Positions 52,865-63,708 of a stretch of 64,000 bases of DNA are shown here, piece after piece. The translations under genes and the position numbers were made by a program. The notes under the pieces were generated by a model, which had not been told where the DNA came from, did no database searches, and saw nothing but the letters and a program-made list of their open reading frames with translations. This stretch comes from a virus (taxonomy: Duplodnaviria; Heunggongvirae; Uroviricota; Caudoviricetes). The first letter of the stretch is position 1. Every line of letters begins with the position of its first letter. The stretch is taken from IMG/VR virus record IMGVR_UViG_3300009784_000001, positions 54,418 to 118,417 of that record; one strand, given 5' to 3'.

Positions 52865-55800
52865 TTATGAACAAGCTGACCATCCGCAATTAGTACATTT
52901 TTTACATCCATTTTCATATATAATAGAATTTGTTAATCCACATTCAGGACAAGTTTCATTAATATTACCTTCTTTTTTCTCTAAATATCTATTTAAGATT
53001 CTTGCACAAACACTGCTGAATGAAGTAATACTATCATCATACTTTTTGAAGGTTTTAATAATATATTCAAGTCCTATTCCATGCCTTAATTCTAATGAAG
53101 TACGAGTACAATGCCTTTTTTCTTCTTCACTGTTAAATTCTGTTAAGTTAGGAATTGTGATAAATTCTGAATCAAATTTATATAAGTTCTTTTTTATTTT
53201 TGTTATTGTACCTCTATGTTCTTTTATTTTATTAAAGGAGGTTTTTAATTCAATATTTTCAAGTGTTGGGATGAAACAAAATAATTCATAAGGCATTTCG
53301 CAATATAAACCAATGATAATAATATAATTTTGACCTTTATATTTTATTTTATAAAAATCACTAGTTAATGTTTTTGGACGTTTAGGAGCATTATGTGTTG
53401 CAAAGTCTTTACAAGGATCGTCATTTTTTTTATCTGTTGCCACTAAAACACCACTTCGAGAACCTTCTCTATATATTGTACAACCTTTTAAGTTATATTT
53501 GAATACATTTTTATAAATTTCATCTACTTCTTTAATAGTTACATTTTGAGGAAGATTAATTGTAGATGAAATGGAAGAAGTTATAAATTCTTGTATTAAT
53601 CCTTGTATTTTAACTCTTTCAACCCAATTAATATCATTTGCAGTTTGTTTATAGTATGGTGATTCTTCATAAACTCTTTGCCAATCTGTATTTTCCCACC
53701 CATTATATTCATTTAAACCTCTACTAGCAAGAAAATATTCTTTTAATTTTGGATGAACAACAACAAATTCCTTAAATCCTTTACCATTTTCATCAATGTA
53801 ATCGGCAGTTTCTCCTGGGGTTAATACTCTTCTTCTTACATAAAATGGTAAAAATAATGGTTCAATACCAGAAGTAGTTTGAGTCATTACTGATACTGTG
53901 CCAGTTGGGGCTAATGTACTAATTCCCGAATTTCTTCTTCCATATTTTAGCATTCTTATAGTTTGAGAAGGAAATTCATCAATAATAAATTGATACCATT
54001 CATTATTTCCTATTAAATCAATATATGTATTTTCACTATCTGAAACTTCATGAAACTCTTTATTTTTATCCCATAATGGAAATGTACCTTTCAAAATAGC
54101 TAAATCAATAGAAGCATCCAATTCATTTTCAAGTTTTAATTTCATCACCTTTTGAAGTATGTCAAAATCTCCATAAGGCTTATTTAACGCTGCAAACATA
54201 TCACCTAAAGCTGTGTAACCAGTTCCTGTTCTTCTACCTAAAGAACCTATATTTTTTATTTCTTCCCACAATTTAATTTCAAGTTTTTTACTCTTTGAAC
54301 TTTTTGATAAAAGTAATAAAATTCTATCAACTGCTTCAATTTCTAAGTCAACAATTAAATCAGTCATAACTTGAATTTCATAAAAAATCTCTTTCATCAA
54401 ATCCTTGTCAATAGAACTATTTTCTGTAAAGGGGGAAGATACCATTGAGTAAAGATTAGTAGCCATTAAACGACATGAATCTTTTGGAGCCAAACTTAAT
54501 TCACCACATGGATTTGTAGATACGGCTTTGAGTTCTTTATATATTGATGTGGGGTCATAATTTATCATTCTATCCCAATTTAAAAATCCTGGTTCGGCAT
54601 GATTTCTATTGGAATAAACAAATTCATCCCATATTTCTTTTGCTTTTACCATTTTTATATAACCTTTATGAGTACCATCAATATTAACCAGATTGTATAA
54701 GTGATTATATAAAAAGTAATCTTTTTTAATATGTTCTATATTATATTTCAAAACTTCTTCATCAATTTTTAAATCACAAGGAAATCTCAATATATAATCT
54801 TCATCATTTTCAAGTGCTTGCATAAATTCATCATTAAATTTAATAGATATGTTAGCATTTGTTATAGCATTTGTATTTTGTTTACATTTAATAAAATCTA
54901 ATATATCAGGATGATTGATATCCATTGAAATCATCATAGCCATTTTACGACTTGATTGCCCTATAATTTTGCCTATTACATCATATATTTGCATCCAATC
55001 AACAGGACCAGAAGAAATTTTTGCTGAATTATTAACAGCAGCATTATTGGGTCTTAAATTTGAAATGTCAATACCACAATTATGAATGTTAACAAACCCA
55101 AAATTACTACCACAATAATAATTATTATTATCTTCAACAACTATATCTATATATTTATATTTTATATTATTATCTTCTATTATAGATTTTACTTGAGTTC
55201 TCGATAGTATTTCAAATAATTTAGAATTATTAATTAAACCAATTTTATTAAACAAATATAATGCAGCTTTTCCACATGATCTTTCTTTATTTAAATTAAT
55301 TCTGTTAGCTTTAAATAAATTATATTCTCTTTTATTAAGTCCCAAAGAAGATATTTTTACATTATTTATTAATTCTATCTCTTCATTAAGAAGTTTTATT
55401 TTCCCAGATTGATGCCTATAACTTCTTTCTTTCATCCTATTTAATTTATCTGGATGAATTACATAATTCATTATTTCAGTATATATATCAGAATCTTTAT
55501 AGATATGTAATCTATATAAATTATTTTCATTATTTTTTTTAGGATATCTAATATTTACACTATATCTTTGACCAATTGAAGATAAATAAAATGATATATC
55601 ATCAATAGCATTTTTTGAAGTTATATCAATATCAATTTTACCTTCCTTTCTAATATGACCATCAGAATCAATTAAGCCAGCAAGAAATGGTATCCACAAA
55701 TTATTTTTATTTATAAAATTTGGAACACTCCAAGTATATGTTTTTTTATTAATTTGATTATCTAAAAAATTATCTATAATATAAACACCATCTATACTTG

Positions 55801-56851
55801 AAACTCTAAATTCCCAACATTCGCTTTTATAAGATTTTCTTTTAACTTTTGTAACTAATGATATATTTTCATTATTAATCATTTTTGAAAAAATACTCCT
55901 ATATTTTTCAATAATCTCTTTATTGTTTCCAATAATACTAAAAACACCAGCATAATATCCATATTGTTTTGGAATAGTTAGTCTAGCTGAACCATCACCC
56001 ATATGACAACCAATCCACCAACCAATTTCATCATAATTATTTAAAATATGCTTATATGATTTACCAGAAATAGTTTTATTAAATGTTTTGTCTAATAAAC
56101 CGCTATTATAATTTTCATATCCATATTCCTTTTCTTTTAATACTAATAATGGATGTTTTTTTGATGTTTTTAAATTAATACCATTATTATATTGTATATC
56201 TATTTGTTCATTTTGTAAAACTTCTGTATAAAATTTATCTGTAATTTTTTTCCATTCATCAATTTTAGCATTAATATTAAAACTTAAAACCATATCACCA
56301 ATATTTACATCTTTTATTGGTATAATACCTTTATCTTTCACTAAAATTTTTGAATTTTCTTCAACACAACCCCCACGGCGTTTTCCTACTTGCCCCATTT
56401 CCATAACAGAAATTAGAATATCCTCAATAGAATCTTCTACTGCATCAACTACAAAACAATTGGAAATTGAAGTAGGAGAATTTGTTCCTAAGTTTTCCAT
56501 TATTGAACCACCTGGAATTATATATCTATATCCTTTCAAATAAAAATAAAAATGTTCCTCTAATTCTTCTAATGTTGCATTTTTTAATTTATCAAAACGT
56601 TTTTTTCCAGTATCAGATAATAATTCATATTTGGTTTTATCTATTTTTTGAAAATAATTAAATTCTATTCTTGCAAATTCTTTAGCATATCTTCTATGAC
56701 TATCATCAGGAGTTAATTCACATAAATTTTTATTTTCATCTTTTAAACAATACTTTTTAATCCATGTAGTTGTAGCTAATTCATCATTGTTAAAGTACTT
56801 GAGGGTGGCATTGTAAACCTCATCATAACTATAATTTTTATTTTCGATCAT
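52865..56851 (-). CDS. ribonucleotide reductase large subunit, class II-like, interrupted by an intein
   Basis: Active-site STNPCGELSL, finger loop SGPVDWM and a C-terminal Cys cluster. There is no ATP cone. The track start at 56857 is TTG; the ATG is at 56851. Confidence 0.85.
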   Translation of the reverse strand: MIENKNYSYDEVYNATLKYFNNDELATTTWIKKYCLKDENKNLCELTPDDSHRRYAKEFARIEFNYFQKIDKTKYELLSDTGKKRFDKLKNATLEELEEHFYFYLKGYRYIIPGGSIMENLGTNSPTSISNCFVVDAVEDSIEDILISVMEMGQVGKRRGGCVEENSKILVKDKGIIPIKDVNIGDMVLSFNINAKIDEWKKITDKFYTEVLQNEQIDIQYNNGINLKTSKKHPLLVLKEKEYGYENYNSGLLDKTFNKTISGKSYKHILNNYDEIGWWIGCHMGDGSARLTIPKQYGYYAGVFSIIGNNKEIIEKYRSIFSKMINNENISLVTKVKRKSYKSECWEFRVSSIDGVYIIDNFLDNQINKKTYTWSVPNFINKNNLWIPFLAGLIDSDGHIRKEGKIDIDITSKNAIDDISFYLSSIGQRYSVNIRYPKKNNENNLYRLHIYKDSDIYTEIMNYVIHPDKLNRMKERSYRHQSGKIKLLNEEIELINNVKISSLGLNKREYNLFKANRINLNKERSCGKAALYLFNKIGLINNSKLFEILSRTQVKSIIEDNNIKYKYIDIVVEDNNNYYCGSNFGFVNIHNCGIDISNLRPNNAAVNNSAKISSGPVDWMQIYDVIGKIIGQSSRKMAMMISMDINHPDILDFIKCKQNTNAITNANISIKFNDEFMQALENDEDYILRFPCDLKIDEEVLKYNIEHIKKDYFLYNHLYNLVNIDGTHKGYIKMVKAKEIWDEFVYSNRNHAEPGFLNWDRMINYDPTSIYKELKAVSTNPCGELSLAPKDSCRLMATNLYSMVSSPFTENSSIDKDLMKEIFYEIQVMTDLIVDLEIEAVDRILLLLSKSSKSKKLEIKLWEEIKNIGSLGRRTGTGYTALGDMFAALNKPYGDFDILQKVMKLKLENELDASIDLAILKGTFPLWDKNKEFHEVSDSENTYIDLIGNNEWYQFIIDEFPSQTIRMLKYGRRNSGISTLAPTGTVSVMTQTTSGIEPLFLPFYVRRRVLTPGETADYIDENGKGFKEFVVVHPKLKEYFLASRGLNEYNGWENTDWQRVYEESPYYKQTANDINWVERVKIQGLIQEFITSSISSTINLPQNVTIKEVDEIYKNVFKYNLKGCTIYREGSRSGVLVATDKKNDDPCKDFATHNAPKRPKTLTSDFYKIKYKGQNYIIIIGLYCEMPYELFCFIPTLENIELKTSFNKIKEHRGTITKIKKNLYKFDSEFITIPNLTEFNSEEEKRHCTRTSLELRHGIGLEYIIKTFKKYDDSITSFSSVCARILNRYLEKKEGNINETCPECGLTNSIIYENGCKKCTNCGWSACS
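55079..56368 (-). mobile_element. intein (430 aa) with a double-motif LAGLIDADG homing endonuclease, inside the RNR gene
   Basis: Begins CVEENSKILVKDKG and ends VNIHN followed by a +1 Cys. HE motifs are GWWIGCHMGDGS and FLAGLIDSDGHI. Codons at both junctions were checked on the sequence: Cys is tgt at 56368-56366 and Asn is aat at 55081-55079. Confidence 0.85.
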
Positions 56852-56985
56852 AAACAATATTTGTAAATTTTATTTTTTGGTAAGAAATAAATACTATCAA
56901 ATGTACCAAAATAATCTGATTTTTTTTAATTTTATTTTAAAACTCTGTTAAACAAAAGTATATTTTTTAAAATAAAAACACAACA

Positions 56986-57380: not shown

Positions 57381-57412
57381 TTTGATATAAATATCTTTTT
57401 CTATATCTTTGT
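57381..57412 (+). promoter_or_regulatory. plus-strand Bacteroidota-type promoter for the Dam methylase gene
   Basis: TTTG at 57381-57384, a 20-nt spacer, then TATCTTTG at 57405-57412. The ATG follows 21 nt downstream. Confidence 0.55.
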
Positions 57413-57432
57413 ATCAACAAATATATAAAAAT

Positions 57433-58326
57433 ATGAGCAAATTTCAAAATCCAATAAAGTGGTCAGGTTCAAAATCATCCTTATCAAAACAAATAGTGGA
57501 ACAAATTCCATATAGTGTAAATGGAACTTATTATGAACCATTTTGTGGTAGTTGCAGCGTCTTATTTGAAATATTAACAAATCTCAAACAAGGATATTTA
57601 AGAAATAGAATAACAAAATATCAATGTTCTGATATAAATAAAGATTTAATTGATTTATGGAATGCTATAAAAGAAAAACCATTATATTTACATCATTGGT
57701 ATTCAAGTTTTTGGGATAACTTCAATTATAATTATAGTTCTATTCCATTGCCTACAGATAAATTATATCAAAATAGAAAAGACAATTTTAATGTTGTAAG
57801 AGGTTTATATAATAGAATAGATGGAGATTGGAGTGAACAGAAATATGTTTTATTATTATTTCTCACTAGAACGGCATTTAATGGTTTATTACGATTTAAT
57901 AATAAAGGTGAATATAATAGCACTTGTCATTTTTCAAGGCCAGGTATTCATCCTGATAAAATGAAAGAAATACTTTTTAATGCTTCTGATATATTAAATG
58001 CTTTTAATGTAGAATTTAAACATATAAATTATGTTGATATTAAGCCAGAAGAAAATGATTTTGTATTTCTTGACCCTCCTTATTCAGACAGTGATAAAAA
58101 GAAAATGTATTATGGCACAATTGATGAGAGAGAATTAATTGATTACTGCAATAATTTACCTTGTAGTTATGGTTTAACTTACAATGGTGATAGAGGAAAT
58201 AACAAAGGAAAAAGATTAGCATTAAATGATACCAAAGAAGTACTTTTAGAAGCTAAAAACAGCAGTTACAGTAAAATGAATGGTGAAATAATTAAAGTTA
58301 AAGAAATTTTATATATTAAAGATTAA
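57433..58326 (+). CDS. dam: DNA adenine methyltransferase, Dam family (D12 class)
   Basis: KWSGSK (Dam KWAGGK), EPFCGSCSV (EPFVGAGSV), LFLTRTAFNGLLRFN and DPPY (FLDPPYSD). The track start at 57409 is TTG inside the promoter box; the ATG is at 57433. Confidence 0.85.
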   Translation: MSKFQNPIKWSGSKSSLSKQIVEQIPYSVNGTYYEPFCGSCSVLFEILTNLKQGYLRNRITKYQCSDINKDLIDLWNAIKEKPLYLHHWYSSFWDNFNYNYSSIPLPTDKLYQNRKDNFNVVRGLYNRIDGDWSEQKYVLLLFLTRTAFNGLLRFNNKGEYNSTCHFSRPGIHPDKMKEILFNASDILNAFNVEFKHINYVDIKPEENDFVFLDPPYSDSDKKKMYYGTIDERELIDYCNNLPCSYGLTYNGDRGNNKGKRLALNDTKEVLLEAKNSSYSKMNGEIIKVKEILYIKD

Positions 58327-58882: not shown

Positions 58883-59419
58883 TTATATTTTACCCCACAC
58901 TTCAAAACTATATGGAATTTCTGTATCATTATCAATATATACAGGAGGCTCTATTGGTTCAAATCCTGTTTCAGGAAACTTAAAGAAAGCATCTGCTTCA
59001 AATGTTGAATGTATTTTTGTTAAATAAATTCTATCTACATAAGGTAAAAATAAATTATAAATTTGTTCTCCACCAATTACCCACACATCTTTCATATTAT
59101 TAATAAGAGGTCTATTAATTCCTAATCTATAAGAAAATATCAATCCATCAAAATCTGTTGGGAAAGAATTTTTATCTAAATAGCCCAAAAAATTACCATC
59201 TTCTTCGTAAATTGATGTTCCTGAATTAGATAAAACAATATTTCTTCTATTAGGTAATGGTTTTTTAGGTAAACTATCCCAAGTTTTTCTTCCCATTATT
59301 ACAACTCCATTAGTTGTTAATTCTTTGAATCTCTTCAAATCGGCTTTTATTGGATATAAAAGATTACCTTTATATCCAATTCCTGAATTTAAATCTGTTG
59401 CTACTATTAAGTTAATCAT
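58883..59419 (-). CDS. folA: dihydrofolate reductase
   Basis: MINLIVATDLNSGIGYKGNLLY..ADLKRFKELT.GVVIMGRKTWDSLP...LPNRRNIVLS and the VIGG..IY motif. Confidence 0.9.
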   Translation of the reverse strand: MINLIVATDLNSGIGYKGNLLYPIKADLKRFKELTTNGVVIMGRKTWDSLPKKPLPNRRNIVLSNSGTSIYEEDGNFLGYLDKNSFPTDFDGLIFSYRLGINRPLINNMKDVWVIGGEQIYNLFLPYVDRIYLTKIHSTFEADAFFKFPETGFEPIEPPVYIDNDTEIPYSFEVWGKI

Positions 59420-59612
59420 CTTTGAATTTATCTTTTAATATTTGACAATTATCACATTCATCATAAGTTACTCCTCTTTTATGGATTGCACACCATGTAT
59501 CACCACATACATCAGAACTCCAATTATCAAAGCCACAAAGAGGCATTGAGCCATCTTTACTCCAACCCTTTTCACCTCTCCTTGTTTTAATTTGTATTGT
59601 TTCTATGTGCAT
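59412..59612 (-). CDS. small Cys-rich protein (66 aa)
   Basis: Track ORF lying between the DHFR and VWA genes. Confidence 0.35.
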   Translation of the reverse strand: MHIETIQIKTRRGEKGWSKDGSMPLCGFDNWSSDVCGDTWCAIHKRGVTYDECDNCQILKDKFKDD

Positions 59613-59617
59613 ATATT

Positions 59618-60247
59618 TTAACCAACATTTTCAAGTGATTGTTCCATAAATGAATCAGCATCAGCCATACTTGCAGAGCATCTGTATTTTGTTGCAACAT
59701 CACAAACATAATGTAATGTTGAGCTAGTATTACTACCATAAGCTGCCATGTGTCTAATACCCATATCAACTCCATCAGTACATTTTGATAAATCATCACC
59801 AAGATAAATAAATGACCAGTTATATACAGTTTCTTGATGTTCAATCATTTCTTTTATTTGTGATAATGAAAACTCAGAAGAAGAATTTTCTTCTCCATCA
59901 GTAATTATAACAACAAGTACTTTTGAAGGTCTATTTTCTTCATTGATTTTAGATAATTCTTCACCTGTTTCATTAATAGCTTTTCCTATTGCATCAAAAA
60001 GTGCCGTTCCACCAGCAGGATTATAATCTCTTTCAGTTATAGTTTTTAATTCATCTTTAGGCTGATTAACCCATATTCTTCTAACATCATTGCTGAATGT
60101 ATATAAAGATGCCATTATATCTCCATCAGGCAAATTCTTTTGAGCTTCTACAAACTCGTTAAAACTACCAATAACATCTTTTTTTCGTGGAGACATTGAA
60201 CCACTTTCATCTATTACAAATGTAATTGCACAAAACTTTTCTTTCAT
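59618..60247 (-). CDS. von Willebrand factor A (VWA) domain protein
   Basis: MIDAS motif VIDESGSM at the start of a Rossmann-like alpha/beta pattern. Confidence 0.6.
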   Translation of the reverse strand: MKEKFCAITFVIDESGSMSPRKKDVIGSFNEFVEAQKNLPDGDIMASLYTFSNDVRRIWVNQPKDELKTITERDYNPAGGTALFDAIGKAINETGEELSKINEENRPSKVLVVIITDGEENSSSEFSLSQIKEMIEHQETVYNWSFIYLGDDLSKCTDGVDMGIRHMAAYGSNTSSTLHYVCDVATKYRCSASMADADSFMEQSLENVG

Positions 60248-60253
60248 ATTATT

Positions 60254-61933
60254 TTAATTTAATTTTAATTCTTCAAATGTTGTTGTTATTTCAGGCTTAT
60301 TTAATCCTGTTGATAATGGAAATTTAATTGTTGGATAAGGATTATAATCATTAATTAAAAATGATTTTGAAGATAATAAAGTAAATAACTCTGTTAATTC
60401 TTCACTCTCATATATTTTTTTATCTTTAAGTTTATTTTCAACAATTTCTAAAAATTTATTTGTATTCTTATCTCCATAATTCCAATCTAACCAAGGTAAT
60501 TTTCTTGGTTCTCTTTGTAATTGTTCTAAACATCCTTCAATTTGATTTTCATATAGATGACAAGAATTACCATGCCATTTAAATTTACCTGGCTTATAGC
60601 CTGTAATTTTAGCTAATATATGTAGTAAAAAGGCGTAACTTGCTATATTAAATGGCAACCCTAAAGCCCAATCTACGCTGCGTTGTACCATTAATAAATC
60701 TAAAAATTCTCCTTTTCTAATATTGGTAGAAAATAAAATATGACAAGGAGGTAAACAAACTTCATTATTTTCTAAAACCATTGGATCCCAGGACAAAACT
60801 TGTTGGTATCTAGAATTTGGATTTGATAATATCAAATTAATTAAATTTTTAATTTGATCAATACCATTATCTATATTTTTTCTAACTAATGTAAATCCTT
60901 TATATGATTTATCATTACCACTTAACAAACTATAAAAAGAATCTTCGTTCAAATTATTTTTTTTAACAAATAAAGGAACATTATCTATTAAATATTCAAA
61001 GCCATCTTTATTTTTAATAATATATTTTTTATGTTGAGTAGATATATTTTCCATTTTAGTGGCAAATTTACATGTTGTTTTAGAATACAATAAACCATTT
61101 CCATTAATATCTTTATCTAATTCATATAATTTCCATTGTTTTATTTTTAATTCATAGTTTGGTATATCTTTAATATCCTCCAAAAAATATTCAAAACATT
61201 TCCATCTATTGGATACTCTTACTCCTCTTCCCCCATAATTTTTATATCCAATATTATTTTCATTATAACATCTATCAATCATATGTTCCCATATTTTTTT
61301 AAATTTTATTGTCAAAATATCTTTTTTATTATATATACCAGTACAAGCCACATTTAAATATTTTGGAAAATAAGGATCATAAATACTTCTATCTTTTATA
61401 TGTTCTTCTCTAATAGCTGTTTTATATCCAGTATTTAAAAAATAAATTTCAAATATTTTATGCCTATTTTCTAAATAACATAAATTAGATCTTACAAAAT
61501 CTCCATAATTTTTACTATGGTATATTTCCAAATTCATATTTTCTGGAATGTCATTCAATTTAATAGTAAATGGTTTTTTATCAGGATAACCTATTATTTT
61601 TTTTGCACCAAAACTGCGCCAAAAATAGGGATAAGATTTCCCTAAAATAGTTGCACTTTCTTTATCCCATCTTTTAACATCATCATCCCATATATGACAA
61701 TTATTTTCATGTAAATATTCTAATGTTACTTTCCCTTTTAGAAAAAAAATTAATTCACTAATTATGCCTTTTGTATACATTTTTTTTGTTGTAAGTAAAG
61801 GAAATCCATCATTCATATCAAATTCTAAATCCAAAACAAAAAGTTCACGTGTTCTTGGCATGTTTTCTCTAGCTGGATCTTTAATATCGCCATTTACCAG
61901 AATTTCTTTCATTAAATCTAAATATTGTTTCAT
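60254..61933 (-). CDS. thyA: thymidylate synthase (ThyA family) with a large in-frame insertion
   Basis: N-terminus MKQYLDLMKEIL...FPLLTTKK and C-terminal LPPCHILF...QRSVDWALGLPFNIASYAFLLH...REPRKLP. A conserved Asn in PFN indicates uracil specificity. The protein is 559 aa against about 264 aa for the E. coli enzyme. Confidence 0.85.
   Translation of the reverse strand: MKQYLDLMKEILVNGDIKDPARENMPRTRELFVLDLEFDMNDGFPLLTTKKMYTKGIISELIFFLKGKVTLEYLHENNCHIWDDDVKRWDKESATILGKSYPYFWRSFGAKKIIGYPDKKPFTIKLNDIPENMNLEIYHSKNYGDFVRSNLCYLENRHKIFEIYFLNTGYKTAIREEHIKDRSIYDPYFPKYLNVACTGIYNKKDILTIKFKKIWEHMIDRCYNENNIGYKNYGGRGVRVSNRWKCFEYFLEDIKDIPNYELKIKQWKLYELDKDINGNGLLYSKTTCKFATKMENISTQHKKYIIKNKDGFEYLIDNVPLFVKKNNLNEDSFYSLLSGNDKSYKGFTLVRKNIDNGIDQIKNLINLILSNPNSRYQQVLSWDPMVLENNEVCLPPCHILFSTNIRKGEFLDLLMVQRSVDWALGLPFNIASYAFLLHILAKITGYKPGKFKWHGNSCHLYENQIEGCLEQLQREPRKLPWLDWNYGDKNTNKFLEIVENKLKDKKIYESEELTELFTLLSSKSFLINDYNPYPTIKFPLSTGLNKPEITTTFEELKLN
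60863..61603 (-). other. in-frame inserted domain of about 247 aa within thyA carrying an HNH-family homing-endonuclease-like module
   Basis: WEHMIDRCYNENNIGYKNYGGRGVRVSNRW ... ELDKDINGNGLLYSKTTCKFATKMEN matches the W..M..RC.N...Y.NYGGRGI.V / LDRID..G.Y..NC.W pattern of phage HNH-type endonucleases. It sits in the ThyA small-domain variable loop, after YPYFWRSFGA. There are no intein splice motifs. Confidence 0.55.
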
Positions 61934-62026
61934 AATTTATCTAATTTTTCTTTTATTTCTTTAATTAGTATCCACAAACCTACTATACAATCAAGTATAA
62001 TAGGAATAATTATAATTTTCATTTTT

Positions 62027-62221
62027 TTAATTTAAATTAGTTATTGTTACATAAAAAGCATCTCCCATTTCATCAATTTCTTTTTGTGGATAACCATTGG
62101 CAACACAAAATTGTGTTATATCTTCTCCCCATTCACCTGGATAAAATTCTTTGGGAAAACCATATAAGTATCCGCTAGGAGGATCTACTAAAAATCTGTC
62201 ATTATTTTTTTCTCTTGCCAT
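62027..62221 (-). CDS. hypothetical protein (64 aa)
   Basis: Track ORF. Confidence 0.4.
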   Translation of the reverse strand: MAREKNNDRFLVDPPSGYLYGFPKEFYPGEWGEDITQFCVANGYPQKEIDEMGDAFYVTITNLN

Positions 62222-62224
62222 TTT

Positions 62225-62734
62225 TTAATCATTTAGTGTTTTCAAATACTCATTTTCTTTAATGATTGCTTTATCAAATATTTCTTTTCCATATTTTTCA
62301 ACCAATTCAATATCAGTAATATTTCCATTAATCATAAGATTGAAACAATCATTTACCTTTTCTTCATCTGTTAATTTAGCAATTTTTTCAGATTCATCCA
62401 ATTTCATAAATTGTATTTTCTGTTCTTGCAATTTATTCAAATCAGTATCATCAAGTTTAGTTGCAGGATAATTTTTTATATATCTATGAAATGCTTTCCC
62501 ATTAGATTTTTCCAATAAATTCTCACCTAAGATTGCATTCTTAAAATTAACATAATCATTAACATCAACATTATCATATCGGTAGGTTCTTCCTTTACCA
62601 AAAACAATTGTTAATGTTTTTAATCTATTATTAGGATGGTCCTCACACATACTATATTCAATATTACTACTTTGGTAATATACATGGTCATAACCAATAC
62701 CATCTTTCTGAATGTATTTTTTATAAATTATCAT
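62225..62734 (-). CDS. hypothetical protein (169 aa)
   Basis: Track ORF. Confidence 0.45.
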   Translation of the reverse strand: MIIYKKYIQKDGIGYDHVYYQSSNIEYSMCEDHPNNRLKTLTIVFGKGRTYRYDNVDVNDYVNFKNAILGENLLEKSNGKAFHRYIKNYPATKLDDTDLNKLQEQKIQFMKLDESEKIAKLTDEEKVNDCFNLMINGNITDIELVEKYGKEIFDKAIIKENEYLKTLND

Positions 62735-62955: not shown

Positions 62956-63708
62956 TTATTTAATCAATTTTTCTTCTGTTAAAAATTTATTTATCATTTC
63001 ATTAGCTCCTTTAACATCCAATTTAGTATCATTACACCATAGCAAATAATCAAGATCAACATTTTTTACTTCCTGTAATGTTTTACCTTTATATTTCCCA
63101 AATGTCATTGTTAATGTTTCTGTTTTTGGAACAGTTTTATTATATTCTTCTTCTGTAAATTTATATTCAAAACATTTTTGGGCAGCGAGATAATCACATA
63201 TATGCAATAATTTTTCTGCTTCTGTTTTAGGTAATCTTTCTCCCCATTGTCCCATATGAGTTTCAACAGAAAATAACAAGTATCTTTCTATGTCAGTTGT
63301 GGTATCATATTCATATGGTATATCTAATTCATCCAAACATTTTTTAAGAAATCTGACAGCAAATTGTGGGTGATCATCTACTGTATGACCAGTTTTATTA
63401 TCTCCCTTTTTAATCATATCATGTGCAATAGCAGCAATCAATAATAAATCTTTTTCACTATCAGTGAAATCAAACATTTTAAGATTGGATAACATAATCA
63501 TTATTTTTGCTACTACCTTTGTATGTCTAATCAATCCACCTGGTCCTAAACTTAAAGGGGGATGATATTTACCAGATGTTGAAGCAGGCATATCAAAAAA
63601 ATATGTAGGGGCTTCTTCCAAGATTTTTTCTAATAATAATTTATATTCTGGATTTTTAATTAAACTTAATTCTTCACTGAAAATATTCAGTCTTTCATTT
63701 TTATTCAT
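62956..63708 (-). CDS. HD-domain phosphohydrolase
   Basis: H...LIRHTKVVAKIM and IAAIAHDMIKK form the HD motif. The C-terminus carries FGKYKGKTLQEV..DYLLWC. Confidence 0.6.
   Translation of the reverse strand: MNKNERLNIFSEELSLIKNPEYKLLLEKILEEAPTYFFDMPASTSGKYHPPLSLGPGGLIRHTKVVAKIMIMLSNLKMFDFTDSEKDLLLIAAIAHDMIKKGDNKTGHTVDDHPQFAVRFLKKCLDELDIPYEYDTTTDIERYLLFSVETHMGQWGERLPKTEAEKLLHICDYLAAQKCFEYKFTEEEYNKTVPKTETLTMTFGKYKGKTLQEVKNVDLDYLLWCNDTKLDVKGANEMINKFLTEEKLIK

Follow-up and report, generated by a model that had tools for sequence, protein, structure and literature searches.

How does a segment of 248 codons that resembles a homing endonuclease come to lie in the middle of a phage gene for thymidylate synthase, and is it taken out before the enzyme works? 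This question is raised by the thyA gene in the stretch of 64,000 nucleotides analysed here (the window), which comes from a virus of the Caudoviricetes (IMG/VR record IMGVR_UViG_3300009784_000001, positions 54,418 to 118,417) and is numbered from its first letter. A first-pass annotation, made from the letters of the window, described the gene as a ThyA that carries an in-frame HNH-type endonuclease-like domain, and left it between two readings, a permanent domain of the protein or an invader that is independent of splicing. The comparative data set out below favour the invader over the permanent domain. We consider it probable that the insert is a splicing-independent, in-frame homing-type selfish element which persists as a domain of ThyA and which would act through the cleavage of DNA. 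It is unlikely to be taken out at the RNA or the protein level, and insert-bearing ThyA is widespread in phages rather than a one-off.

In the list of open reading frames (ORFs) of the window, thyA is a single ORF on the minus strand (60254..61933) that starts with ATG and encodes 559 amino acids (aa), and the plus strand, translated over these positions, is riddled with stops. The Pfam model Thymidylat_synt (PF00303) matches the protein in two separate stretches (E 1.5e-68; 231 bits, where the cut-off is 24.3), as do the NCBIfam thymidylate synthase models (for TIGR03284 the score is 188.5 and the cut-off 108). Both families of models thus match on either side of the insert, which bears out the earlier description of two canonical ThyA halves, and the motifs quoted at the time can all be located: YPYFWRSFGA, LPPCH, QRSVDWALGLPFNIASY, REPRKLP, WEHMIDRCYNENNIGYKNYGGRGVRVSNRW and ELDKDINGNGLLYSKTTCKF. 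An alignment with three phage ThyAs and with an E. coli ThyA sequence entered by hand shows that the additional 248 aa are residues 110-357 (60863-61606) and lie between the YxxxWR segment, here YPYFWRSFGA, and the IDQ helix. The insertion point after YPYFWRSFGA and the in-frame read-through, with one ORF of 559 aa spanning both ThyA parts and the insert, are therefore as first proposed.

The residues that contact dUMP and folate or that take part in catalysis are kept (R22, E60, W82, Y101, R375, C397, R418, S419, D421, N429, H459 and Y461, the counterparts of E. coli R21, E58, W80, Y94, R126, C146, R166, S167, D169, N177, H207 and Y209). Across 56 relatives, of which 47 bear an insert, they vary little or not at all, and R22, E60, W82 and Y101 are invariant; E. 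coli R127 is replaced by Tyr376 in the window ThyA. The AlphaFold2 (AF2) model of the full chain shows ThyA with an inserted folded domain, at a mean predicted local distance difference test score (pLDDT) of 94.7. Because a gene for dihydrofolate reductase (DHFR) lies nearby, the catalytic residues are conserved and the predicted fold is confident, we argue that this ThyA is predicted to be a working dTMP synthase; to judge from its sequence, the window enzyme should still be active, and the chimera would have retained ThyA activity. At the position of the insert, insert-free relatives have 2 to 26 residues, so the loop is naturally variable, and we take it to be the site of the first short insert of eukaryotic thymidylate synthases. 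Two other peculiarities of the enzyme part are a lineage-specific extra segment after REPRKLP (about aa 484-520, WLDWNYGDKNTNKFLEIVENKLKDKKIYESEELTELFTLLSS) and a C-terminal tail (aa 541-559) that extends past the usual end; the extra C-terminal segment is common to insert-less relatives of 330-350 aa.

The same arrangement recurs in many other phages. When ThyA relatives in public genomes and metagenomes are ranked by score, 87 of the best 120 carry a homologous in-frame insert of 170-285 aa. The cultured carriers include the Bacillus phages 015DV002 and Kioshi, the Klebsiella phages KP13-7 and phiKp_21 and the Escherichia phages UE-S1 and ph0011, in all of which the gene is annotated as thymidylate synthase only. 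Ten residues of the insert (W215, R221, C222, Y223, Y233, G234, W244, K274, D275 and Y283) are the same in 87/87 inserts, D273 is conserved in 85/87 and N296 in 79/87; the core residues overall are kept in 79-87/87 and are present in the free-standing relatives as well. Computationally, this pattern of residues shows an insert that appears to be under strong purifying selection. In seven relatives (P0105, P0125, P0126, P0133, P0135, P0151 and P0154) there is a second insertion site, upstream of LGPVYGxQWR.

Phage thyA is a classic intron host, as T4 td shows and as does Klebsiella phage RCIP0023, which belongs to the same genus as an insert-bearing phage. One could suppose that here, too, the extra segment is an intron, for example a group I intron with an in-frame ORF, which would be spliced from the mRNA to give a ThyA of normal length. 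An Rfam scan of 59500-62500 up to E 10 revealed no group I or group II intron, and four further loci, insert-bearing or related ones, likewise gave no intron match in Rfam searches up to E 0.1; as a positive control, the same scan detects the T4 td intron with an E-value of 2.9e-8. Protein homology covers residues 24-240 of the insert and thus all of it except about 23 N-terminal and 8 C-terminal residues, which leaves no room for a ribozyme core. The reading frame is kept across both junctions in 87/87 insert-bearing relatives despite the varying length of the insert, and the chance of a stop-free frame of 248 codons at the base composition of the insert is about 1e-13. We therefore regard an intron as extremely unlikely.

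The insert might instead be removed after translation, by an unconventional intein-like reaction or by proteolysis, which would free the endonuclease and leave a normal or a two-piece ThyA. Inteins are not foreign to this setting: the large subunit of ribonucleotide reductase (RNR) of the window genome carries a LAGLIDADG domain, and an intein is known in the ThyA of one relative, P0047. Against such a removal, the junctions in the 87 relatives are made up of variable residues, with no conserved Cys, Ser or Thr at +1 and no His-Asn pair ahead of a nucleophile, Pfam gives no Hint or intein match, and there is no Hint fold among the PDB matches of the fold searches. The real intein of P0047 lies at a different site and has the expected junctions, Cys...Asn/Cys (CFTEDN...IVSN/CHALVQF, the slash marking the junction). 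On this evidence post-translational removal is very unlikely, and the first-pass view that the segment is neither an intron nor an intein holds. P0047 itself, a ThyA relative of 909 aa, has an HNH-like insert at the usual loop and, in addition, a true LAGLIDADG intein at the catalytic cysteine; the contrast between the two fits an element that is unable to splice and so is confined to a permissive loop. A separate start within the insert, at Met133, was considered and rejected: this methionine varies among the relatives and is not preceded by a Shine-Dalgarno sequence, and nothing thus points to the insert being translated on its own.

What, then, is the insert? The PHROG family phrog_2081, named 'HNH endonuclease', matches its residues 24-240 with an E-value of 1.6e-46, and four more endonuclease-annotated PHROGs match its core, so that a profile search does return a similarity to proteins annotated as HNH endonucleases. 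When 1.84 billion cluster representatives were scanned exhaustively with HMMER, 1,311 relatives of the insert emerged at E <= 1e-10, and the best 150 of these comprise 52 ThyA fusions and 98 free-standing proteins. The free-standing relatives are mostly 220-245 aa long and align to the insert from end to end, which indicates that the insert is a whole gene and not a fragment. Long insert matches without a ThyA domain, considered as candidate fusions to other host proteins, are free-standing proteins with tandem modules, and the 'dUTPase' of Staphylococcus phage PT94 is a mis-named free-standing member of the family; a search with the core profile returned short proteins only, and further fusions could not appear in it.

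The AF2 model of the insert alone (pLDDT 90.7) has three parts, namely a small beta domain of Tudor/SH3/CarD-like appearance, a helical segment (W..M..RC / YGGRG) that runs into a beta-beta-alpha unit (ELDKD ... Y ... C-x-F ... EN), and a small C-terminal module. The model thus predicts the beta-beta-alpha metal-finger fold by which HNH, or His-Me finger, nucleases are recognised. In fold searches the top structural match is I-HmuI, and 105 viral structural relatives are named homing endonuclease or I-HmuI-like NUMOD-like. An alignment with hhalign pairs TCKFATKMEN of the insert with NLRWVTQKIN of I-HmuI (residues 87-96) and so puts N296 on the catalytic N96; the first 88 residues of the I-HmuI query were entered by hand, and the aligned part agrees with the PDB sequence. 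A catalytic role of I-HmuI Asn96 is cited by PMC9410903. The putative metal-binding asparagine is found in most of the ThyA inserts, the position of N296 being occupied by N in 79/87, Q in 7/87 and S in 1/87 inserts. The tail of the insert aligns with I-HmuI residues 97-171 (hhalign probability 77%, E 2e-5) and reaches an E-value of 0.084 when searched against the PDB with a hidden Markov model. PF22083 (I-HmuI NUMOD-like) matches the same region in the inserts of relatives and in free-standing relatives, and not in the window protein.

Mobility is seen in comparisons between close relatives. Within one genus of Klebsiella jumbo phages, the insert is present in KP13-7 and phiKp_21 and thyA is empty in K64-1, RaK2 and Muenster, and the thyA of the Klebsiella phages RCIP0023 and W12-3 holds an intron-type GIY-YIG ORF instead. 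In RCIP0023 (L028, 902-2859) thyA is annotated as two pieces around an 'intron-associated endonuclease 1' ORF, a third allelic state in the genus of KP13-7. Between KP13-7 and K64-1 the flanks are 96% and 94% identical in DNA and a central tract has been replaced, which consists of the insert and of thyA codons on both sides of it, about 17 of them upstream and about 60 downstream. The Escherichia jumbo phages UE-S1 (with the insert) and PBECO4 (empty) repeat this pattern, with flanks that are 94.7% and 89.9% identical. When UE-S1 is compared with KP13-7, the insert tract is 83-93% identical and the backbones 69-73%, so that the tract is more alike than the genomes that carry it, and lateral transfer between phage genera is indicated.

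Further pairs point the same way. Two contigs from metagenomes, L024 and L025, share 98.4-99.8% identity along some 5 kb, interrupted by a swapped tract of 880 nt, which holds different variants of the insert (31% aa identity) and about 45 upstream codons. P0087 and P0135 have identical ThyA ends (the extein, in the sense of the ThyA sequence outside the insert) and carry their inserts at two different sites, and 015DV002 and BSP14 show a presence/absence polymorphism. In many pairs inserts that are 97-99% identical lie in exteins that are 56-75% identical, in other pairs the reverse is seen, and the identities of extein and insert are only weakly correlated (rho 0.18). In a rough extein tree the window ThyA is nested among insert-less ThyAs, and in the corresponding insert tree the window insert groups with inserts of other ThyA clades. 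Presence or absence at a precise site combined with co-converted flanks, the pattern expected of a homing element, is therefore shown for the relatives, not for the window locus.

The free-standing relatives also lie where homing endonucleases typically do: in Bacillus phage Chotacabras just upstream of thyA, in SPG24 between DNA polymerase pieces, and elsewhere upstream of an RNR gene or flanked by a kinase/HD gene and a methylase gene.

Some comparisons contributed nothing to the argument or concern other elements. Kioshi and Hobo are uninformative on the boundaries of the insert, since the whole of thyA has been swapped between them (L003, 2986-4632, against L005, 2983-3852, in flanks that are 83-95% identical); the Kioshi ThyA also diverges at normally conserved positions, with QECAW for PCH and with PFNWFQY. 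The DNA polymerase of Caulobacter phage RW was set aside as a further fusion, as the match lies inside an apparent real intein and probably in another frame. That protein (L021, 340-3222) is a DNA polymerase of 960 aa with an intein-like segment (CIAKFTPV...VHN/C), and the tblastn match to the core module falls inside this segment, apparently out of frame. In the contigs L025 (1844-4513) and L024 (2846-4513), which are 99.8% identical, a LAGLIDADG intein of about 1 kb is present in one and absent from the other RNR large subunit (889 against 555 aa).

The main rival to an element that homes is a domesticated one. On this account the insert is derived from an endonuclease, has lost its nuclease activity and is now a DNA- or RNA-binding domain of ThyA. 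Its inheritance would be mainly vertical, broken now and then by ordinary recombination, and the domain might serve to tie dTMP synthesis to replicating DNA or to control the expression of thyA. This account draws on the missing catalytic histidine and Pfam HNH match, on the intact catalytic residues of ThyA, on the extreme conservation of the insert core and the retention of the insert across whole ThyA clades, and on the minimal free-standing relatives, in which the core is joined by a small DNA-binding domain and a recognised nuclease domain is lacking. What speaks against domestication is the presence, absence and swapping of inserts between genomes that are 94-99% identical, with co-converted flanks; the greater likeness of the insert tract than of the backbones across phage genera; the two insertion sites in otherwise identical ThyAs; the alternative state of thyA within one genus, an intron with a GIY-YIG endonuclease; and the positions of the free-standing relatives. 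We consider domestication as such unlikely, though homing and domestication are not exclusive.

Several observations weigh against a homing element and must be set beside this, some of which the domesticated domain shares as support. Pfam (up to E 10) and NCBIfam give zero matches for the insert, so that it stands without a match to a curated HNH profile; the scan with HNH and NUMOD profiles that had been suggested leaves the window insert unmatched by any such Pfam profile, and for want of a Pfam HNH match an intrinsic nuclease activity is putative. The canonical general-base histidine of HNH enzymes is missing, and a comparison of 30 free-standing and 87 ThyA-borne members of the family reveals no conserved histidine. 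L272-D273-K274-D275 stands in for I-HmuI D74-H75-K76-D77, in an alignment based on spacing only, as hhalign starts at residue 87. A tblastn search of the 64-kb window with the insert found no paralogue or partner endonuclease of the insert family. The strong conservation of the insert would fit a host-beneficial domain, too. The extein and insert trees are rough, simple neighbour-joining trees on p-distances. Lastly, the nearest relative of the window gene is at most 48% identical to it, and for want of a close relative mobility is shown for the relatives, not for the window locus; a search of viral contigs through the neighbouring VWA gene found only loci that are 38-46% identical, none with an informative thyA.

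The description of the insert as an HNH-type endonuclease-like domain thus stands as to kinship, through the PHROG and the structural matches, and falls short as to the catalytic histidine and the Pfam HNH or NUMOD match in the window protein. Judged by its sequence, the module is best described as HNH-derived with a non-canonical site. The HNH enzyme PacI reportedly uses a tyrosine in place of the histidine (Shen et al. 2010), and Y283 is invariant in the insert family (87/87); by analogy, a PacI-like role for this tyrosine is a lead.

For the homing element that we favour, we propose the following course of events. The insert, with its beta domain, its His-less beta-beta-alpha core and its NUMOD-like tail, sits in a variable surface loop of ThyA, between the YGxQWR segment and the IDQ helix. 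Since it has neither a ribozyme nor a protein-splicing domain, the element would be translated within ThyA and tolerated as an extra folded domain, next to which the ThyA core keeps all of its catalytic residues. The chimera or a partner nuclease would bind the insert-free thyA of co-infecting phages and nick or cut it, and recombinational repair would then copy the insert together with neighbouring thyA codons; such co-conversion would explain both the patchy distribution and the swapped tracts. The cleavage step may be intrinsic, by way of the His-less active site, or it may be supplied in trans, for which the mobilisation of the defunct I-TevIII by T4 mobE is a precedent (PMC2790892). We infer that the insert domain itself cleaves DNA and that the element is still mobile in the lineage of the window phage. 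It is conceivable, though we hesitate to call it probable, that this amounts to a distinct route of colonisation, in which a whole endonuclease gene settles in a permissive loop and yields a bifunctional enzyme-endonuclease chimera, the endonuclease being a His-less HNH derivative that targets the empty thyA of competing phages and whose catalytic residues may be D/K/D, Tyr and Asn.

How does this compare with known systems? T4 td with I-TevI is similar in its host gene, a phage thyA/td beside DHFR, and in the presence of a mobile endonuclease element. The first-pass annotation had put the td intron at a similar place, which is not the case: td is split at QRSVDVFLG/LPFNIASY (aa 183/184), equivalent to G425/L426 of the window protein, which lies downstream of where the insert sits by about 65 codons of ThyA. 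Besides the site, the td element differs in belonging to the GIY-YIG family and in being RNA-spliced, with a ribozyme that Rfam detects. The HNH nicking enzymes of Bacillus phages of the I-HmuI / I-BasI type (PDB 1U3E) share with the insert the beta-beta-alpha unit, the aligned asparagine (N296/N96), a putative NUMOD-like C-terminal module, a modular extended architecture and the origin in phages. I-HmuI lies within a group I intron and has the D74-H75 pair, whereas the insert is intron-less and has LDKD; the N-terminal part of the insert, a Tudor-like domain and the W..M..RC/YGGRG segment, and its lack of a Pfam HNH match are further differences.

Inteins that bear endonucleases are likewise found in frame in genes for conserved enzymes, are sporadic in distribution and spread by homing with co-conversion. 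Unlike them, the insert has no Hint domain or junction nucleophiles, stays in the mature protein and is found in a variable loop at the surface, not in a catalytic motif as is the intein of P0047 at the catalytic cysteine. Free-standing phage endonucleases, such as the seg and mob elements of T4 and mobE of Aeromonas phage Aeh1 with its nrdA, are intergenic or, in the case of nrdA, split the host gene into two polypeptides. They resemble the insert in being intron-less and intein-less and linked to genes of nucleotide metabolism, and the free-standing members of the insert family lie beside thyA, RNR and DNA polymerase genes; the difference is that here the frame of the host gene continues through the element on both sides to give one chimeric protein.

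A further parallel is found in fungi. In the Ophiostomatales, LAGLIDADG ORFs are fused in frame to the mitochondrial rps3 and have no intron or intein of their own, according to PMC7902536 (citing Gibb and Hausner 2005). As in thyA, the coding sequence of a homing endonuclease is thus in frame with a host protein without an intron or intein of its own; the LAGLIDADG family and the organelle setting are different. The fusion is also said to be located toward the end of rps3 and not to be an internal domain insertion that is read through. A full-text literature search found no description of the ThyA insert, and an actinophage intein preprint concerns the ThyX-type thymidylate synthase (IPR003669), a different enzyme family.

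Features of the thyA locus in the window (aa numbers refer to the 559-aa protein)
Feature	Position	Strand	Evidence
thyA ORF (ThyA-insert chimera, 559 aa + stop)	60254..61933	-	ORF list; PF00303 in two stretches; AF2 full-length pLDDT 94.7
N-terminal ThyA part, aa 1-109	61607..61933	-	R22 (E. coli R21), E60, W82, Y101, YPYFWRSFGA; alignments
In-frame insert, aa 110-357 (248 aa)	60863..61606	-	phrog_2081 E 1.6e-46; end-to-end free-standing relatives; insert-only AF2 pLDDT 90.7
Small beta-rich domain of the insert, about aa 122-184, Tudor/SH3/CarD-like	61382..61570	-	
Core module of the insert, aa 205-301	61031..61321	-	W215..M..R221-C222-Y223, Y233-G234-G-R-G, W244, L272-D273-K274-D275, Y283, C288, N296
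Beta-beta-alpha part of the insert core, aa 270-300	61034-61126	-	
C-terminal I-HmuI-type NUMOD-like putative DNA-binding module of the insert, about aa 303-352	60878..61027	-	hhalign to I-HmuI
C-terminal ThyA part, aa 358-559	60254..60862	-	IDQ, R375, C397 (60743-60745), R418-S419-D421, N429, H459-Y461; alignments
VWA-domain gene, immediately downstream of thyA	59618..60247	-	Pfam VWA E 2.1e-8
Dihydrofolate reductase gene	58883..59419	-	Pfam DHFR_1 E 1e-38

The neighbourhood of the gene is as first described, DHFR-VWA-thyA, with the VWA and DHFR genes recognised by Pfam and both on the same strand as thyA. Upstream of thyA, Pfam identifies a protein of 169 aa with a weak KTSC domain (62225-62734, minus strand) and a protein of 250 aa with HD and ExoX-like C-terminal domains (62956-63708, minus strand). 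The RNR and DHFR genes are separated by a gene for a D12-class N6-adenine DNA methyltransferase (57409-58326), which lies on the opposite, plus strand. In the RNR large subunit (52865-56857, minus strand, 1330 aa) a LAGLIDADG_3/Hom_end domain (aa 390-458) precedes the barrel domain, and from its sequence this looks like a classical intein. The window has a G+C content of 26%, and an identical ThyA protein is found on a metagenome contig of 359,962 bp, which indicates that the host of the element is a jumbo phage.

Homing endonuclease genes are usually thought to need an intron, an intein or an intergenic site if they are to invade essential genes without being lethal. The case of ThyA suggests a third solution, which is to remain as an extra domain in a tolerant loop. 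The alleles of the sister phages KP13-7 (insert), K64-1 (empty) and RCIP0023 (intron) make the fitness cost of a selfish insert that is not spliced a tractable subject, and the system allows one to ask whether an HNH fold without its histidine can still cut DNA. Such inserts are a possible source of new site-specific DNA-binding or nicking modules, and other over-long phage enzymes may conceal mobile elements that are missed by programs that look for introns and inteins.

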